In this document: positions 3,314 to 35,965 of the stretch, in pieces
Numbering within the stretch: position 1 is the first letter of the stretch
Layout of the letters: every line of letters starts with the position of its first letter
Source of the DNA: a virus
Length of the DNA stretch: 37,149 bases
IMG/VR virus record: IMGVR_UViG_3300009702_000008
Location: 1-37,149 of that record
Direction: 5' to 3' (one strand)
The notes under the pieces: model-generated
What the model was told of the DNA's origin: nothing
What the model saw: the letters and a program-made list of their open reading frames with translations, nothing else
The model's database searches: none
Program-made: the position numbers and the translations under genes

Positions 3314-4279
3314 CTAGCCCGTGAGAACCCGCTTGGACGTGATCACTGCCCCGCCCGTGGTGACGGTCCTTAGGCCTGCATCAATATCAAAGGGCGGGAA
3401 TTGATGTATCCGCCGTTGAAAGTTGGGCCTATAAATCGCGAGAGGATCATCGCTCAGAATCTTGAGTTCGCCATCCGAGAGATAGCGATTCCAAGTTGCG
3501 ACATGCGCAATCGAGAGCGAATCTGAATAGACTCCATCGCGCAACCCACCATAGAGAGCGTTGGTGCCGTGCGTCGCAGTGATGTGATTGCCAGATGTGG
3601 TTGTCGAAAGCGCAACGCCGTTGAGCCATAACTTGTGCGGAGTATTATCTATTGGCTCGCCCGAGGTTGCTGCAATGATATTGAGATTGTCGTTCGCAGC
3701 AAAGATCGAAACATCCTGATGTTGGAAGGCGCCGCCTGTGTTGAGCGCAGACAGAGTGCCATCATGTGCAACGAGCGCAATCGTTTGAAGTGTATTATCC
3801 AAATATAAGATGTGGCCTTTGAGTTTGCCCCCTGCCTTTGACGATCCCTTTTGATCCGTGCACCAGATGTAAGAAAAACCAGCAAGATTACTAGGGCTTA
3901 CAAACGCCTGAATTGTAAACGGTGGAGTCAATCTGACTTGATTGAAGTGATCGTTGGCAGATGTTCGTAATGCTCCTGCTGCGGAAGAATCGCCTGTATG
4001 TATCGCAGGTCCGATTGTTGTTTTGGCTTGTGTTAACGACCCACGTTCAAACAACCTACCTGGTGAATGCCCTGTGATCGAATAAGTGAATTGCCGAACC
4101 GCTCCAATGTTTGCCGCAAGCGTCAATGCCGAATGCATATATCGCAAAAACAGACACGGACTGAATGTAGTCATCAATCCACGCCATAATTGCGGATAGG
4201 CGGATTCCGAACTTGTTCTCGCTGCGTCTGACGCACGTAACACGCCAGGGAAAGAATTGCCGACCCCACTTGTAGCCAT
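3314..4279 (-). CDS. LamG/concanavalin-A-like jelly-roll protein, last gene of the structural operon
   Basis: 321 aa. C-terminal ...SLSIAHVATWNRYLSDGELKIL resembles the conserved end of LamG-type domains. Start overlaps the upstream stop. Confidence 0.6.
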   Translation of the reverse strand: MATSGVGNSFPGVLRASDAARTSSESAYPQLWRGLMTTFSPCLFLRYMHSALTLAANIGAVRQFTYSITGHSPGRLFERGSLTQAKTTIGPAIHTGDSSAAGALRTSANDHFNQVRLTPPFTIQAFVSPSNLAGFSYIWCTDQKGSSKAGGKLKGHILYLDNTLQTIALVAHDGTLSALNTGGAFQHQDVSIFAANDNLNIIAATSGEPIDNTPHKLWLNGVALSTTTSGNHITATHGTNALYGGLRDGVYSDSLSIAHVATWNRYLSDGELKILSDDPLAIYRPNFQRRIHQFPPFDIDAGLRTVTTGGAVITSKRVLTG

Positions 4280-26403: not shown

Positions 26404-27303
26404 TCAATCAAACAACCCGCCTGATTCGGACGTGTACCAGATCACCTCGGTCCGCGGGACTTTGGCCATTGCCGATCCCGTCCCTTGCAGTCCTGATTCT
26501 CTGCCACATACCGCCGCATGACATGCCGTTTTGATTTCTCGCCGTTCATATCGTTGATCGAGACGATTGTAAAGCTCATTCGAGTATCCGCTTATCATCG
26601 CCTTGCCTTTAATCGTCAACAACAAGTCAACAAGCTCTTCGTGATGGTCGTCGTCGCATTCATGGACGTATTCGCCCGATTTTCTAGTCGATGCGACATA
26701 GGGAGGATCGAGGTAGAACACCGTGTCCGGCGAATCCCAATACCTGATAACTTCGAGGGCGTCTCGATTATCGACCTGAACGCGCTTGAATCGCTCGATG
26801 ATCGATGGGAGCAATGAGACGCGGCGGATCCATCTTGCAACGTTCCTTGCCATTCCACGGGATTCAACGAAAGCGCGACTCCAATCGCCTGGTGTTTTAC
26901 AAACATCCATCGAAACGCCCTGATTCTGCACGACGAAAAACGCCCACGCCCGATTCACGTCATCGCCGATCTTCCCATGCATGATATCAAGAGCTTTGGC
27001 AAACTCAGCGCGAGAATAAAGCGTTAGCTCCAACCGGCTGATCAGTGCCTCGGATTTCTCAGCGTTTTGCAATACTCGGCACAAGTTGATCAGCCGATCA
27101 TCGAGGTCGTTATACACTTCAACCGGTCGCGGTTTGATCCAAAACAACATGGACGCCGCACCGCCGTAGGGTTCGCAATAGACGCGACCGTGCGGAAGAT
27201 ATTTGGCGATCGTCCTGCACAGATTGCCTTTGCCGCCGAACCATTGAACTAATCCAGGCAACTTGTTTTTGACATGGCCGTTTGTTTTTTCTTTCGTGTG
27301 CAT
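26404..27303 (-). CDS. DNA adenine methyltransferase, Dam/D12 class
   Basis: ORF 26404..27600 trimmed to ATG 27303. Motifs LVQWFGGKG, EPYGGAAS and DPPY. Confidence 0.85.
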   Translation of the reverse strand: MHTKEKTNGHVKNKLPGLVQWFGGKGNLCRTIAKYLPHGRVYCEPYGGAASMLFWIKPRPVEVYNDLDDRLINLCRVLQNAEKSEALISRLELTLYSRAEFAKALDIMHGKIGDDVNRAWAFFVVQNQGVSMDVCKTPGDWSRAFVESRGMARNVARWIRRVSLLPSIIERFKRVQVDNRDALEVIRYWDSPDTVFYLDPPYVASTRKSGEYVHECDDDHHEELVDLLLTIKGKAMISGYSNELYNRLDQRYERREIKTACHAAVCGRESGLQGTGSAMAKVPRTEVIWYTSESGGLFD

Positions 27304-27344
27304 TTCAGTTTGAACACTTCGGCAATTCCGAATAGTTGCTTCAT

Positions 27345-27414
27345 TGCTCGCCGACGGAATCGAACCGCCGTTCGGGCGCGGAGATGAGGCACGCCTTACT
27401 AATCCATTGCGAGC
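27345..27414 (-). other. tRNA-like element, non-canonical (no D-arm)
   Basis: GCTCGC-AATGGATTAGTAA-GGCGTG-CCTCATCTC-CGCGCC-CGAAC-GGCGG-TTCGATT-CCGTC-G-GCGAGC-A. Perfect T-arm, 6-bp acceptor-like helix, 6-bp stem with a 9-nt loop. Confidence 0.35.
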
Positions 27415-27445
27415 TACTAACGCCGCCCAAAGACGGCATCGCGAT

Positions 27446-27498
27446 CCCCTGCGATAAGCCCTCGACCCCCTGCGATAACGGCATAACCCCTGCGATAA
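27446..27498 (-). repeat. Three direct copies of CCCCTGCGATAA (sense strand TTATCGCAGGGG) at 20-21-bp spacing
   Basis: Copies at 27446-27457, 27467-27478 and 27487-27498, upstream of the tRNA-like element. Confidence 0.85.
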
Positions 27499-27596
27499 GA
27501 AGGGGGCGGCGACCCCACCGGAAGAGGGAGCGAGGCCGCCGCTGGGAGAAACGACAATCGGTCCCCACCGCGTCAATTCGCCCCGGGTAACACTCA

Positions 27597-27812
27597 TCAA
27601 TTCTTATCCTTAGCCTTGCCATCCGGCATCAGCCGATCGTCAATCGTGATCGTCGCAACGCCCTTTTCGTCAGCCGTTTTTGCGGCACGCGAGAAAAACG
27701 TAATCTCCGTACCCCATCGCAGACCGGCTTCTGTTGAATTGGATACGGTCGTCGTACAACCGAGCAGACATCCGCCGATCGCTAACAAGACAAGATTTCC
27801 CAAGAGCCTCAC
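27597..27812 (-). CDS. Small lipoprotein (71-aa precursor)
   Basis: GTG 27812 lies 6 nt after GGAGG. MRLLGNLVLLAIGGCLLGC-TTTV has a signal peptide and a lipobox. Confidence 0.6.
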   Translation of the reverse strand: MRLLGNLVLLAIGGCLLGCTTTVSNSTEAGLRWGTEITFFSRAAKTADEKGVATITIDDRLMPDGKAKDKN

Positions 27813-31946: not shown

Positions 31947-32663
31947 TCATTGTGACAAGCGCCTGTCACCTCTGGTTTCAACGATTGTTCCGCTCGCCAT
32001 TCGTGACGCTATACGAGCGTCATACATCTCCTCAATTTTTTCCGGAGCAAGATTGCTTATAAGCACTAACGGTGCGCAATATCCTCCAGACCTGTCGATA
32101 CGCTTATCGAGAGCTTTCGCTAAAGTTTCGTAATGATGGTCGGTGATTTGACGGCGGATTCCAATTTCATCGAGCACCGCGATGTTGCACTCGTACCAGT
32201 CTTTCCAAATGTCTTTTTCCGTTTGGACGATATTTTCATGTTGAGCAGCAATAATCCTGGAGCATAGCTCGTTGATCGTTGTATAAATCGCATCGCCAGC
32301 CCAATCGCAAACGCAAAGGGCGGCGCATGTTTTGCCTGAACCGGTCTCGCCTGACAACAATAAAGGCCATGGACTATCGCCGAGTATGCACGATGAGAAC
32401 ATGCGCTTGATATGGTCATCAACCAAACCATTCGTCCGATGCTTGTCGGGAAATTCCCATCGTGGCGGAGACAGCTTTTCTACGGTTCTGCAACAGGCTA
32501 CAGCACTCGGCGATTCAATAATCGGATTGTCGAGATCGACTATTCGTATGGTCTTAGGCATCAGTTGCCCGATGGATTTTGACGTTTGCGAATCTGGATT
32601 TCTCATAACGGACTCTCGCAGGGTTGTCATCGGATTTTTCAGGTCGTTTCCAGTTTGATTCAT
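31947..32663 (-). CDS. DnaC/IstB-like AAA+ helicase loader
   Basis: Walker A GETGSGKT and Walker B VLDEIG. The start is uncertain: ATG 32663 has a GGGAGA RBS but overlaps the upstream gene by 110 nt. Confidence 0.75.
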   Translation of the reverse strand: MNQTGNDLKNPMTTLRESVMRNPDSQTSKSIGQLMPKTIRIVDLDNPIIESPSAVACCRTVEKLSPPRWEFPDKHRTNGLVDDHIKRMFSSCILGDSPWPLLLSGETGSGKTCAALCVCDWAGDAIYTTINELCSRIIAAQHENIVQTEKDIWKDWYECNIAVLDEIGIRRQITDHHYETLAKALDKRIDRSGGYCAPLVLISNLAPEKIEEMYDARIASRMASGTIVETRGDRRLSQ

Positions 32664-33363
32664 CGTCGTCGTATCTCCCTTGATTGAACCAGGTCGCCGG
32701 ATGCGGGACGTATTGCCAGTCCTCGGTCGCTTTGAGCGGCGAGACCGCCTGGGCGTAGAGTTTCGTCCGCTCGGTGAGGTGGTCCGCGGTAGCCCCCCGT
32801 TTCAGTGCTTGGCTGATTGCTTTGAGGGCGGCCTGCTTGCCGACCTTTTTCGGATATTCGGCGTAGATTGCTTCGAGTTGTGATGTTTTTGTGGTGCTCG
32901 TGGTTTTTTGAGTAAGAGTACTCTTTAGAGTACTCTTTATACTCTTCTCTTCTCTTCTCTTCTCTGGTAACGCTGTTGTAACGCTTTCTGTAACGCTGCT
33001 ATCGTTACATTTGTTACTCTTTGAGCGTTTCTTTTGCACCCGTAACGCCGTTAACGCTCTAGTTTTGGCGGTTTGTCCATTATACCTTTTGAAATTCTTG
33101 AATTTGATACCTTCATCATCAAAAGCAGCCCATCCCGACAATTCCAAAGCCGCAGCGAATCCTTGACAACCCAATAACGCGTCAAGCGTTACATTTGTAA
33201 CGCCGGGAACGTAACCATTTTCGCTGTTATCATCAATCCATTCCATGAGTCGCATGAATTTTGAGGCCACTTCATCGTTCGTGAGGTTCAGTTCTTTAGA
33301 GATAATGAAAATCTCAGGCTTGAAGGTCAGTCCCTTGACCCACTTAATCCAATCCCCGGCCAT
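32554..33363 (-). CDS. Replisome organizer / replication initiator (lambda O / DnaD-like)
   Basis: N-terminal MAGDWIKWVKGL...MRLMEWIDDN. Low-complexity linker. C-terminal YPKKVGKQAALKA...HPATWFNQGRYDD, as in phage replisome organizers. Confidence 0.75.
   Translation of the reverse strand: MAGDWIKWVKGLTFKPEIFIISKELNLTNDEVASKFMRLMEWIDDNSENGYVPGVTNVTLDALLGCQGFAAALELSGWAAFDDEGIKFKNFKRYNGQTAKTRALTALRVQKKRSKSNKCNDSSVTESVTTALPEKRREEKSIKSTLKSTLTQKTTSTTKTSQLEAIYAEYPKKVGKQAALKAISQALKRGATADHLTERTKLYAQAVSPLKATEDWQYVPHPATWFNQGRYDDDESNWKRPEKSDDNPARVRYEKSRFANVKIHRATDA
32916..33216. repeat. Iteron cluster inside the organizer gene (candidate origin)
   Basis: GAGTACTCTTTA x2 (each containing the palindrome AGAGTACTCT), (CTCTT)n at 32942-32965, GTAACGCT at 32967, 32978 and 32990, plus further GTAACG/CGTTAC copies out to 33216. 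Confidence 0.55.
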
Positions 33364-33537: not shown

Positions 33538-33864
33538 TCACATGGTTCCGGCGATGAAGTCGTGCAGATCGTCAACCGACCTGACCACAACAGCAGTTCC
33601 GCCGGAAGCCTTAACGGACTCCATCCACGCAAGCTGATCCGCAGTAGGTTTGTTGCGTCCTGTTTTGCATTCGACGCTCAGAAACCGCCCGCCGGCCAAC
33701 ACGGCGAAGATGTCGCCCGATCCCCTAGCGCCGAAGCGGACGAACCGCCTGCGTCCTTTATAGGTGCCCCCTACCGCCCCCGTATTGTTTCGCCACGCGA
33801 GGATGCCCCTAACGCGGAGGTAGTCCAAGCATGCCTTAACTAGCTTTGTTTCGCTGCCTGCCAT
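33538..33864 (-). CDS. VRR-NUC domain nuclease
   Basis: 108 aa. ...GSGDIFAVLAGGRFLSVECKTGRNKPTADQLAW... (D...ExK...Q..W). Confidence 0.8.
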   Translation of the reverse strand: MAGSETKLVKACLDYLRVRGILAWRNNTGAVGGTYKGRRRFVRFGARGSGDIFAVLAGGRFLSVECKTGRNKPTADQLAWMESVKASGGTAVVVRSVDDLHDFIAGTM

Positions 33865-33867
33865 TCA

Positions 33868-34265
33868 GTGCCGTGCCTTGCCCGGCCTCGTCACGCCCAT
33901 CCTCGCCTGCGATGCCAATCCATGTCATTCCTCACCTAGCCGGGCCAAGCCAGTCCCCGCCTGTCCGATCCAAGCCACGCCTTGTCGTTCCTCGCCTGCG
34001 ATGCCACGCCTGGCCTCGCCCGTCCGCGCCAGTCCGATCCTCGCCTGCGATGCAGTGCCAACCCTTGTCATTCCTTGCCGATCCGTGCCCTGCCTGCGAT
34101 GCCGAGCCGATCCATGCCTGGCCGAACCTTGCCGTGCCGCGCCAATCCGCGCCCTTCCAATCCACGCCTTTCCCTGCCTGCGATGCCGAGCCAATCCGTG
34201 CCTTGCCACGCCTCGCCTGCGACGCCAAGCCGATCCTCGCCAATCCTCGCATCGCCGCGCCTGCC
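33868..34265. repeat. Array A: degenerate 5-nt-periodic NN(G/T)CC units punctuated by TGCGATGCC
   Basis: CC recurs every 5 nt. 9-mers start at 33908, 33997, 34046, 34095, 34179 and 34218, and all gaps are 4 mod 5. Confidence 0.9.
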
Positions 34266-34721
34266 TTATCCCGCCTTCTTTTTGCGCTTGCGAATAATTA
34301 CCTCTAACGTCGCAAATAACGGAGCCAGCTCGGCCAACCGTTCATATTTCCTTTTGAAAATAAGCAAGTCCTCAATCGCGTCATCGAGCAAACACTGTGT
34401 AAGTTGCGCGTCACTCAACACGCCAGCGATATTGCGGTATCCGCCGCTCTTAATCTTTCGATCTTTGCGCAACGAAACATAGACTTGCGTCGGGGTATCG
34501 ATCGGCGATTCCTTATAGACGACTTTGACGATCAACTTGCGTGCCTGCCACAAGCGATATTCGTGACCGGCCTTTTGGTCGTCCCACTCAAATTGTTCGT
34601 GCAACGCGGTCTTAGGGTTTTCAGCGAAACTGACGACATCCTCGGGTCGCAACAAGCCTTTGTGTTTTTTTTCTATGACCTTCAGTTCGCTTTCGATTGT
34701 TCTTTCCTTCAGTTTGACCAT
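34266..34721 (-). CDS. 151-aa protein bracketed by the two arrays (FEWDD...RLWQARKLI motif, basic C-terminus)
   Basis: ATG 34721 after GAAAGGGAAAACA. Normal coding composition. Function unknown. Confidence 0.7.
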   Translation of the reverse strand: MVKLKERTIESELKVIEKKHKGLLRPEDVVSFAENPKTALHEQFEWDDQKAGHEYRLWQARKLIVKVVYKESPIDTPTQVYVSLRKDRKIKSGGYRNIAGVLSDAQLTQCLLDDAIEDLLIFKRKYERLAELAPLFATLEVIIRKRKKKAG

Positions 34722-34746
34722 TGTTTTCCCTTTCAGTTTGTGTTAG

Positions 34747-35089
34747 GTTTCCGTTCCTGCAGTGCCGTGCCACGCCCCACCCAGCCCAACCTCGCCTGCG
34801 ATGCCAATCCTTGCCTCGCCGCGCCTTTCCAATCCACGCCTTTCCTTGCCTGCGATGCCGTGCCTTGCCCATCCGTAGCGATCCCCGCCCTTCCACGCCT
34901 GCGATGCCATGCCGGTCCCGTCCATTCCCCGCCACGCCATTCCACGCCTCGCCTGCGATGCCGTGCCGGTCCCCGCCCAGCCAGTCCTATCCTTGCCGCT
35001 CCGCGCCTGCGACGCCAAGCCAATCCAGTCCGATCCTCGCCAATCCAAGCCTGTCCGATCCTGCGGTGCATGCGAAGCCATGCGGAACC
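34747..35089. repeat. Array B: paralogue of array A with a near-regular 54-bp higher-order unit
   Basis: 9-mers at 34758 (degenerate), 34797, 34851, 34900, 34954, 35008 and 35062 (degenerate). Gaps are 39, 54, 49, 54, 54, 54. Confidence 0.9.
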
Positions 35090-35135
35090 GAGCACAGCAT
35101 AGCTGCGCTCGGCCCCACAAAAACAAAAACCACGA

Positions 35136-35819
35136 CTAGGACTTTAGACGAAACGTACCCCAACCCATGCCGCAACTCTTCTTACTGTCCGGCCTGCCCT
35201 CGCCAATACCAACCTGCATCCCAACGCGCGAAAGCAAATTAGTAATGTCCTCAAACGTAAACATGTCAGCGTCAAACGTGACCGACACAACAGCCTCCCA
35301 ACCCTCAGGCCACATCGGCCTGGGTCGAATGTCAACAACGCCAGTTTCGTTCCTGACATACATCTCGAAATAATCAGGTTTGCCCTTCGTGATCTTCACC
35401 AGGGGAGTTCCATCATCCGAGTCAAAGCCATTCGCTTCGACAAAGACGGCGAGTTTAGCTCGCGTCATCGTAAACCCTACGATACGGCACGCTGAAATCA
35501 TGGCATTGCGAAACGACGGAGCAGGAATGCCGTGCCAACCTTCACGCGAAACGTGCATCGCATCCTCATAGCACTTTGCAAAATCTTTCGGCTCTCGTTT
35601 CTTTTTTCCCCTTGCTGTAGACCCCGCCTCCTGCACCGCTTTCATCTGTTCGCGAGCCTTTGCCGAGAACTTATTTTGCACATATGGAGCGGTACCGATT
35701 ATGGTAAACTCCGCCGTTCGCAGATTCGGCGGTAAAATCTGCACGTTGCGAACGCCTTTTTGTTTCGCCTTCCCGTTGTTTTTCTTTGCATCTTCCAATT
35801 CTGCAATTCGATTCGTCAT
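35136..35819 (-). CDS. Conserved-looking hypothetical protein of the recombination module (227 aa)
   Basis: ORF trimmed to ATG 35819 (GGGAGA 6 nt upstream). C-terminal ...GMQVGIGEGRPDSKKSCGMGWGTFRL. No family named with confidence. Confidence 0.7.
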   Translation of the reverse strand: MTNRIAELEDAKKNNGKAKQKGVRNVQILPPNLRTAEFTIIGTAPYVQNKFSAKAREQMKAVQEAGSTARGKKKREPKDFAKCYEDAMHVSREGWHGIPAPSFRNAMISACRIVGFTMTRAKLAVFVEANGFDSDDGTPLVKITKGKPDYFEMYVRNETGVVDIRPRPMWPEGWEAVVSVTFDADMFTFEDITNLLSRVGMQVGIGEGRPDSKKSCGMGWGTFRLKS

Positions 35820-35965
35820 CTTGTTCTCCCGTAAAAGAGTTGTTCGCAAGTTACACACTTGCGTGTTCATCACAAAACCAATCTTTCCCGACCTGATTCT
35901 CGGCAGGCTTCATGCACCAACGGTCATCATCGCGCCTGCCGCTGCAACGCTTGCCGCTAAGACGA

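Follow-up and report, generated by a model that had tools for sequence, protein, structure and literature searches.

The window analysed here, a stretch of 37,149 nucleotides from the viral record IMGVR_UViG_3300009702_000008, comes from a tailed phage with terminase, portal, major head and tape-measure genes, and all of its genes lie on the minus strand. Two repeat arrays, A and B, are found within a replication/recombination module that includes Sak4-like, VRR-NUC, replication initiator and DnaC-like genes. Array B occupies a 414-bp gap between two small genes. The first, a candidate vipr gene, encodes 227 aa as called in public data (35136..35819, minus strand, P0001), and its mechanical open reading frame (ORF) extends on the same strand to a GTG at 35873, giving 245 aa. 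The second, a candidate vap (vipr-accessory) gene of 151 aa, lies between arrays B and A (34266..34721, minus strand) and belongs to PHROG phrog_15946, of unknown function. Array A (33859..34271, minus strand) comprises seven units of 54, 39, 84, 49, 49, 89 and 49 nt, each with CGCA or GGCA at its end; the last one overlaps the start of the VRR-NUC gene (33538-33864, minus strand) by a few bases. The replication-initiator gene is at 32554-33363 and a DNA methyltransferase gene at 26404-27600, both on the minus strand. The latter carries in its 5' part a 20-bp tandem repeat (CCCCTGCGATAAGCCATCAA, 2.7 copies, 27446-27499).

Array B had been described in an earlier note, made from the letters alone, as a set of 9-mers recurring at a near-regular distance of 54 bp. 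A regular-expression recount gave exactly the same seven starts (34758, 34797, 34851, 34900, 34954, 35008 and 35062) and the same six gaps (39, 54, 49, 54, 54 and 54), so that no irregular spacing was found; the three abutting degenerate 9-mers said to close the array are also present, at 35062-35089. The 9-mer reads TGCAGTGCC at 34758, TGCGATGCC at 34797, 34851, 34900 and 34954, TGCGACGCC at 35008 and TGCGGTGCA at 35062, followed by TGCGAAGCC at 35071. The exact sequence TGCGATGCC has eight copies in the window, all on the plus strand and all within arrays A and B, with none elsewhere, against about 0.3 expected of a 9-mer by chance when both strands of the 37 kb are counted. Superimposed on the 9-mers is a shorter period. 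CC dinucleotides spaced by 5 bases number 53 in array B, compared with 14.1 +/- 3.7 in 2000 shuffles (maximum 29), which places the 5-base periodicity about 10 standard deviations above the shuffled sequences. Within the window this spacing exceeds background in arrays A and B only, reaching 19 per 100 bp, where the background has a mean of 0.65 and a maximum of 7 per 100 bp. Autocorrelation of the arrays peaks at lags of 5, 10, 15 and 20 and then at 39, 44, 49, 54 and 59, a pattern implying a 5-base period with one register shift of -1 in every unit.

The 9-mer is therefore a real motif but is better described as a 4-mer (TGCG on the plus strand, CGCA in the RNA sense) joined to an ordinary conserved pentamer. 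A length of 54 corresponds to 4 + 10x5, or 11x5-1, that is, to 11 pentamers with a 1-nt overlap with the next unit. A length of 5k-1 is found for each of the 12 units of arrays A and B (39, 39, 49, 49, 49, 54 five times, 84 and 89); the register is interrupted by 14 four-mers and no six-mers, and the shift is always -1. The minus strand offers the best reading of the array, since it is the sense strand of every gene here, and on it both arrays are runs of GG[C/A]NN pentamers. Among the 133 pentamers of arrays A and B, positions 1 and 2 are G in 97% and 96% of cases (124 of 133 begin with GG), position 3 is C in 62% and A in 32%, and positions 4 and 5 have near-maximal entropies of 1.90 and 1.92 bits. 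In array B alone, 57 of 58 pentamers begin with GG. Units contain 8-11 repeats in array B and 8-18 in array A. Their 3' end, GGC[A/G]T-CGCA, is conserved and their first pentamer is usually GGCGA, with variable pentamers in the interior; at the junction, ...GGCAU CGCA|G GCGA..., one G is common to both units.

Read in the RNA sense, the region between the vipr stop codon and the array contains a hairpin of 15 base pairs (35084..35116, minus strand; RNA fold of 34740-35135). It is followed by an array leader which, on parsing the sequence, consists of three abutting minimal units, each a pentamer plus CGCA (35062..35089, minus strand; GGUUC-CGCA, U, GGCUU-CGCA, UGCAC-CGCA). Six units follow, all on the minus strand. 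Unit B1 (54 nt, 35008..35061) reads GGATC GGACA GGCTT GGATT GGCGA GGATC GGACT GGATT GGCTT GGCGT CGCA; unit B2 (54 nt, 34954..35007) reads GGCGC GGAGC GGCAA GGATA GGACT GGCTG GGCGG GGACC GGCAC GGCAT CGCA; and unit B3 (54 nt, 34900..34953) reads GGCGA GGCGT GGAAT GGCGT GGCGG GGAAT GGACG GGACC GGCAT GGCAT CGCA. Unit B4 (49 nt, 34851..34899) has one degenerate pentamer, GCTAC; pentamers 2-4 of unit B5 (54 nt, 34797..34850) are those of unit A3; and unit B6 (39 nt, 34758..34796) has TGCA at its end. Two last pentamers, GGAAC GGAAA (34747-34757, minus strand), precede the ribosome-binding region of the next gene.

The gene just upstream of array B encodes a protein with a Cas7-like predicted fold. 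The AF2 model of the 227-aa protein has a pLDDT of 81.8, and in a Foldseek search against the PDB the best 50 of 53 matches (E<=0.001; best E 7e-6) are all Cas7-type RAMP subunits or complexes, including Csm3, type VII Cas7, Cmr4 and gRAMP. The protein, assigned to PHROG phrog_4652 of unknown function, has a C-terminal G-loop, VGIGEGRPDSKKSCGMGWG, and the sequence GIGEGRP...GMGWG is conserved. A shallow family profile compared with the PDB ranks the 'SUSP1 Vipr protein' (36pp) first, with an E value of 0.06. A deeper profile (A2), built from 73 family members comprising representatives at 50% identity and two mycobacteriophage proteins, gives a sole significant match among PDB sequences, again the 'SUSP1 Vipr protein' (36pp_D), at E 1.4e-7; the alignment joins profile positions 26-200 to chain residues 4-180, almost the full chain. 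Among the RNA-contacting residues of SUSP1 Vipr, which reportedly hold G1 and G2 and stack against Y3, H17, R138, D177 and R179 correspond to N49, R167, E207 and R209 of the window protein, all four of which are invariant or at least 90% conserved in close relatives. SUSP1 W178 aligns to a Gly, and the GWG motif of the window protein lies further downstream. Judged from its predicted structure and its sequence, the product of 35136-35819 is a Cas7-like RAMP protein and a homologue of Vipr.

The Vipr-like family comprises 3372 clusters at 50% identity and extends over Cheoctovirus mycobacteriophages, Gordonia phages, a cyanophage and prophage-like regions in many bacterial phyla, the closest genome matches being Planctomycetota MAGs. 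Low-stringency blastn shows that the arrays themselves match those of Cheoctovirus Mycobacterium phages and a Gordonia phage. In these, NNGCC repeats run along one strand with TGCC 4-mers between them, and the G-rich strand is the sense strand. Cheoctovirus mycobacteriophages and several Gordonia phages carry the gene-array module. The 245-aa ORF of the window is 34% identical to gp49 of Mycobacterium phage Donkeykong, in which the order is array, Vipr homologue gp49 and 151-aa gp50 (L004), an array-vipr-vap order also found in Cheoctovirus mycobacteriophage Quico; in Gordonia phage Ecliptus, the array adjoins the Vipr homologue gp19. The closest annotated phage is cyanophage Cy-LDV1 (L016, BK059895.1), whose Vipr homologue g34 is 65% identical and whose layout, vipr-array-vap-array, is that of the window, with arrays at 3620-3815 and 4410-4570 of L016 and an excisionase next. 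The module genes of Cy-LDV1 are all annotated as hypothetical. In four metagenomic relatives a gene of ~156-161 aa follows the homologue, with arrays adjoining. In bacterial loci the array is found upstream of the vipr homologue, directly after it, or beyond the small gene that follows.

The 151-aa protein is 33% identical to Donkeykong gp50, the neighbour of the Vipr homologue gp49, and a gene of ~150-160 aa follows vipr in loci L007-L011 and L016. Conservation of this gene beside vipr extends to Mycobacterium phages, cyanophage Cy-LDV1 and metagenomic relatives. The protein has no match in Pfam, NCBIfam or PADLOC, and its model (pLDDT 92.4) has no significant fold match in the PDB, the weak matches being winged-helix-like (E>1). 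Synteny and conservation make it a plausible candidate for vap.

Among 54 bacterial genome loci encoding a homologue, a GGNNN array lies within 2.5 kb on the sense strand in 46 and on the antisense strand in 5. The earlier note had remarked that 54 bp is about 5 helical turns. This appears to be a coincidence: unit lengths change by 5 bases, which flips the helical phase by half a turn. It is nevertheless one of two observations that speak for an element of duplex DNA (iterons, an origin or a partition-type site) in which a protein would contact GCC/GGC every half turn and 54 bp would set five turns in phase, the other being the location of the arrays in a replication/recombination module. Such an element is highly improbable. 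The lengths step by 5 bp, both here (39, 49, 54, 84, 89) and in relatives (44-64), with the phase flips that this entails; polarity with respect to transcription is conserved, which a symmetric site would not need; and the arrays of other phages lie outside replication modules, always beside the vipr-vap pair. Moreover, the direct repeats at 32915-32998, inside the initiator gene, are a better origin candidate. This segment contains AGAGTACTCTTT twice, CTCTT 4.8 times and three 11-12-mers containing GTAACGCT, followed by an inverted CGTTAC, and is similar to origins of the lambda type, which lie within the initiator gene.

The second numerical coincidence, that 54 nt is also 18 codons, does not hold generally, as lengths here and in relatives change by 5 bases and are mostly not multiples of 3. 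A coding repeat, in which each unit would specify 18 residues of a repetitive protein, could draw on the ORFs of 120-232 aa that cross the array in several frames and on the CDS gp48 annotated over the array of Donkeykong. It is scarcely plausible, however: array B is itself thrown out of frame by its 49-nt unit, intervals in relatives are mostly not multiples of 3, and conservation follows nucleotides 1-2 of a 5-nt period and not the positions of codons. The Quico array is alike and has no CDS annotated over it (L005 2490-2730). The open frames across the array result from the GGMNN composition, in which the sole stop reachable on the sense strand is TAG, from NN = TA, found in 3 of the 124 pentamers with a GG start. 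Long ORFs over the arrays, such as 34404-35242 (plus strand) and 34733-35126 (minus strand), may be reported as proteins by gene callers; the 'hypothetical protein' CDS gp48 (L004 2471-2857) is probably spurious.

The conserved orientation with respect to transcription, together with a G:C ratio of about 2:1 on the sense strand, would also suit a structural element without guide function, with (GGNNN)n in the RNA or the non-template strand forming two-tetrad G-quadruplexes or favouring R-loops, or with Rho loading onto the C-rich antisense RNA and so stopping antisense transcription. The minimal G4 motif accommodates GG runs separated by 3-nt loops. This explanation is nonetheless very unlikely, as it accounts neither for the hypervariable NN positions, the conserved 4-nt shift and the junction, nor for the obligate linkage to a RAMP-fold protein. 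In addition, when array B and its leader (34740-35135, minus strand) are folded as RNA, their stability exceeds that of shuffled sequences by a modest margin only (z = -2.4), for which the leader hairpin is largely responsible. This hairpin is not a standard intrinsic terminator, because the U-rich run precedes it and none follows, and the terminator scan made no call there. Near the arrays, nothing informative came from scans for promoters and terminators, and Rfam and tRNA scans gave no matches.

The features of the locus correspond closely to those of VIPR. As described in one preprint (bioRxiv 10.64898/2026.04.26.720920), VIPR is a minimal locus of two genes, for a small phage-encoded RAMP (Vipr) and for vap, together with guide RNAs (vrRNAs) of 9-16 YNNGG repeats; the repeats have a conserved GGY and a hypervariable NN, which reads dsDNA with one base skipped per repeat, and alternative consensus sequences such as NNNGG are allowed. 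In 'staggered arrays', adjacent vrRNAs overlap by 1 nt (same preprint, legend of fig. S18). The companion structural preprint reports one Vipr protomer per vrRNA pentamer in a right-handed helical filament, whose length is set by that of the vrRNA, up to ~30 repeats (bioRxiv 10.64898/2026.04.26.720927).

The window agrees with this description in several respects. Vipr proteins are small RAMP homologues in which an RRM core is combined with a thumb and a glycine-rich loop, and the 227-aa product belongs with them by its Cas7-like fold, its profile match and its G-loop. The arrays have the attributes of a vrRNA region, in which at least four pentamers, typically 9-16 per guide, occupy an intergenic position beside vipr, the consensus here being GGM and not GGY. 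The context is viral, the window contains no CRISPR array, and the neighbouring proteins tested include no Cas protein besides the Cas7-like one. Adjacent units overlap by 1 nt at all 12 lengths of the form 5k-1, a property for which the figure legend is the point of comparison, and the agreement of array strand and gene strand in 46 of 54 relatives accords with expression as vrRNA. We therefore read array B, with a probability of about 0.88, as a staggered array of VIPR guide RNAs in a tailed-phage genome. The 54-base units are most likely individual VIPR guide RNAs, and the array would thus add a further case to a system already described, as opposed to representing a novel type of DNA element. 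The protein footprint of about 50 bases built from 5-nt steps that the earlier note had proposed was right in kind, with Vipr reported to bind as one protomer per pentamer and a homologue encoded just upstream, but it applies to the minus-strand RNA and not to duplex DNA.

By analogy with the systems described, the array region would be transcribed with the vipr operon, and each 5k-1 unit would give rise to one vrRNA, ending on the nucleotide with which the following one starts. One Vipr protomer would bind each pentamer, sequestering GG(Y/M) and exposing NN, so that a 54-nt unit would form an 11-repeat guide with ~11 protomers. The exposed NN would pair with dsDNA reading NNxNNx... over a footprint of ~33 bp, and the skipped target base would often fall at a codon wobble position. 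The expected outcome would be silencing of the genes of competing phages or other mobile elements.

Comparison of the arrays across relatives shows which aspects of the unit are retained. The earlier note had taken conservation of a ~54-bp unit as a prediction. The 5k-1 architecture is indeed kept in relatives, but the number 54 is not. Across the 54 genome loci the register is shifted by 346 four-mers as against 29 six-mers. The intervals between 4-mers are 44 (29 cases), 49 (26), 54 (26), 59 (25) and 64 (22) nt, so that 54 nt represents 26 of 258 intervals, inside a broad 44-64 peak with tails at both ends; short intervals of 4, 9 and 14 nt are also common. Under this length distribution, the uniformity of array B, with at least four of six units at 54, has a probability of ~0.001-0.007. 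Guides have runs of three identical pentamers in common (B1/A1/A5, and B5/A3 with GGAAA GGCGT GGATT), and for this reason unit duplication and divergence is favoured over a preferred filament length as the source of the uniformity. The common runs suggest that guides arose by duplication or recombination between units, or that they address variant alleles of one targeted site.

Two further properties vary. The 4-mer at the junction is CGCA in the window and GGCA in most relatives, CGCA being found also in several cyanobacterial and other loci. The A content of position 3 is the highest among the loci examined, with relatives ranging from 0 to 26%, and the SUSP1 structure is said, in the companion preprint (bioRxiv 10.64898/2026.04.26.720927), to exclude purines at this position. 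Replacement of E71 by Ala in the position-3 pocket was considered as the cause of the GGA repeats and was rejected, this Ala being near-invariant in relatives with mostly GGC arrays.

The VIPR systems of the first preprint show no self-targeting and accept NN matches of at least 80% (bioRxiv 10.64898/2026.04.26.720920). Likewise, no self-targets were found in the window at >=80% NN match, the best score of 75% being no better than that of shuffles preserving the dinucleotides in altered order. A mismatch-tolerant search of the masked window and 11 loci gave no match exceeding the shuffled-guide controls, with no difference among skips of 0-3 nt. Among viral contigs, exact 1-nt-skip patterns of B2, B3 and the cores of A6 and A3 gave no matches. 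B5 gave 17, mostly in contigs of 24-39% GC and with no second guide converging on them, and the first ten dinucleotides of A3 gave one, in which the remaining 12 bases agree at 2 positions; both results are chance-like. An exact scan with one guide of Mycobacterium phage Quico found no match. The viral and metagenome scans admitted exact matches only, as opposed to the >=80% NN match of the preprint, and one or two pentamers at the beginning and at the end of a guide may belong to the handle; for both reasons the negative result is a weak one.

Among metagenome contigs, the exact B2 pattern gave four matches representing three distinct sequences, and these were judged to be due to chance. On the strand opposite the matches to its 18-base skip pattern (L012/L015 and L014), the encoded peptide is VGP[Q/H]SYFAA, and the skipped bases fall at wobble positions. 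The match in L014 lies inside a 353-aa ORF of a high-GC contig, an ORF that by eye resembles an ornithine cyclodeaminase family gene. As a target, the B2 sequences were set aside as a chance match multiplied by protein conservation.

The lack of targets in these scans is one of the observations that would be expected of a decayed remnant, that is, an array of vrRNA origin that has lost its expression or its use; others are the presence of some degenerate pentamers (GCTAC, GACAA) and the unusually high frequency of A at position 3. Such decay is very unlikely, since the vipr ORF is intact and keeps all conserved motifs, 57 of the 58 pentamers of array B retain their GG and the junctions are highly uniform.

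Within the reading of array B as a staggered vrRNA array, it is possible, although doubtful, that the locus represents a tail-less variant of VIPR in which the guide boundary is given only by the 4-nt shift (CGCA/GGCA), position 3 is relaxed to C/A and the 54-nt uniformity reflects a preferred filament of 11 protomers. The 4-nt step may break the 5-nt register required for cooperative filament growth and, in a tail-less architecture, could thereby define the guide ends; the conserved GGCAU-CGCA-G-GCGA junction might then serve as a processing or handle signal. If this were true, guide-RNA ends would be defined by the register shift in a novel and highly compact way.

Read as a vrRNA array, the locus would be a previously unannotated example of VIPR, a form of RNA-guided DNA recognition described only in 2026. 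Its gene-array module is widespread, being at present annotated only as hypothetical proteins. Mycobacteriophages have no occurrence in the main text of the VIPR preprint. For annotation, ORFs called over such arrays would be spurious, the 5k-1 spacing would provide a simple rule by which arrays can be cut into guides, and the GGM consensus and CGCA junction would widen the search pattern. The locus raises no new question beyond those of the VIPR preprints themselves.

Several known systems share individual properties with array B. The trp RNA-binding attenuation protein, TRAP, binds 11 (G/U)AG triplets spaced by 2-3 nt. It resembles the present case in having a short motif about every 5 nt, about 11 repeats and one subunit per repeat, but has an unrelated fold and forms a closed ring instead of a filament, and its spacers carry no information. 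A TRAP-like reading was dropped, as no TRAP-like gene is present and RAMP homology was found. An RNA sponge of the CsrA-like or Hfq-like kind was also dropped as the main reading, in view of the VIPR literature and the neighbouring Vipr homologue.

The Cas7 backbone of class 1 CRISPR effectors (Csm3, Cmr4, type VII Cas7) is closer, having the same fold family, one subunit per fixed RNA step and a thumb that flips bases at periodic intervals. It differs in its 6-nt step along a contiguous guide, compared with the 5-nt step of VIPR, in which two of five bases are used. Unlike class 1 loci, the window has no repeat-spacer array, no cas1/cas2 and no other cas genes: it contains no 25-40-nt repeats, and the neighbouring proteins tested against Pfam, NCBIfam and PADLOC gave no cas or defence-system matches. 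A class 1 CRISPR-Cas system was therefore rejected, there being a single RAMP gene, no repeat-spacer array and no Cas family match in these databases.

The type II VIPR of Escherichia phage SUSP1 and the P. fulva prophage (PDB 36pp), the systems characterised by experiment, shares with the window a homologous protein with the Arg/acidic/Arg RNA-contact residues, repeats of the YNNGG type, arrays on either side of the genes, and guides of 9-16 repeats. However, SUSP1 vrRNAs are separate transcripts of ~100 nt with a structured 3' tail of ~40 nt (a pseudoknot), whereas the window array has no tail, only a conserved junction of 9-10 nt, and similarity between the protein sequences is very remote. 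The nearest counterpart is found in the staggered VIPR arrays, for which the legend of fig. S18 is the sole basis of comparison. The window differs from these in its CGCA junction and in having C/A and not a pyrimidine at position 3. It agrees with them in its pentamers of conserved GG and variable NN, in the 1-nt overlap and 5k-1 spacing of its units, and in the arrangement of phage-borne arrays on the flanks of two small genes, one of which is a RAMP-like vipr.
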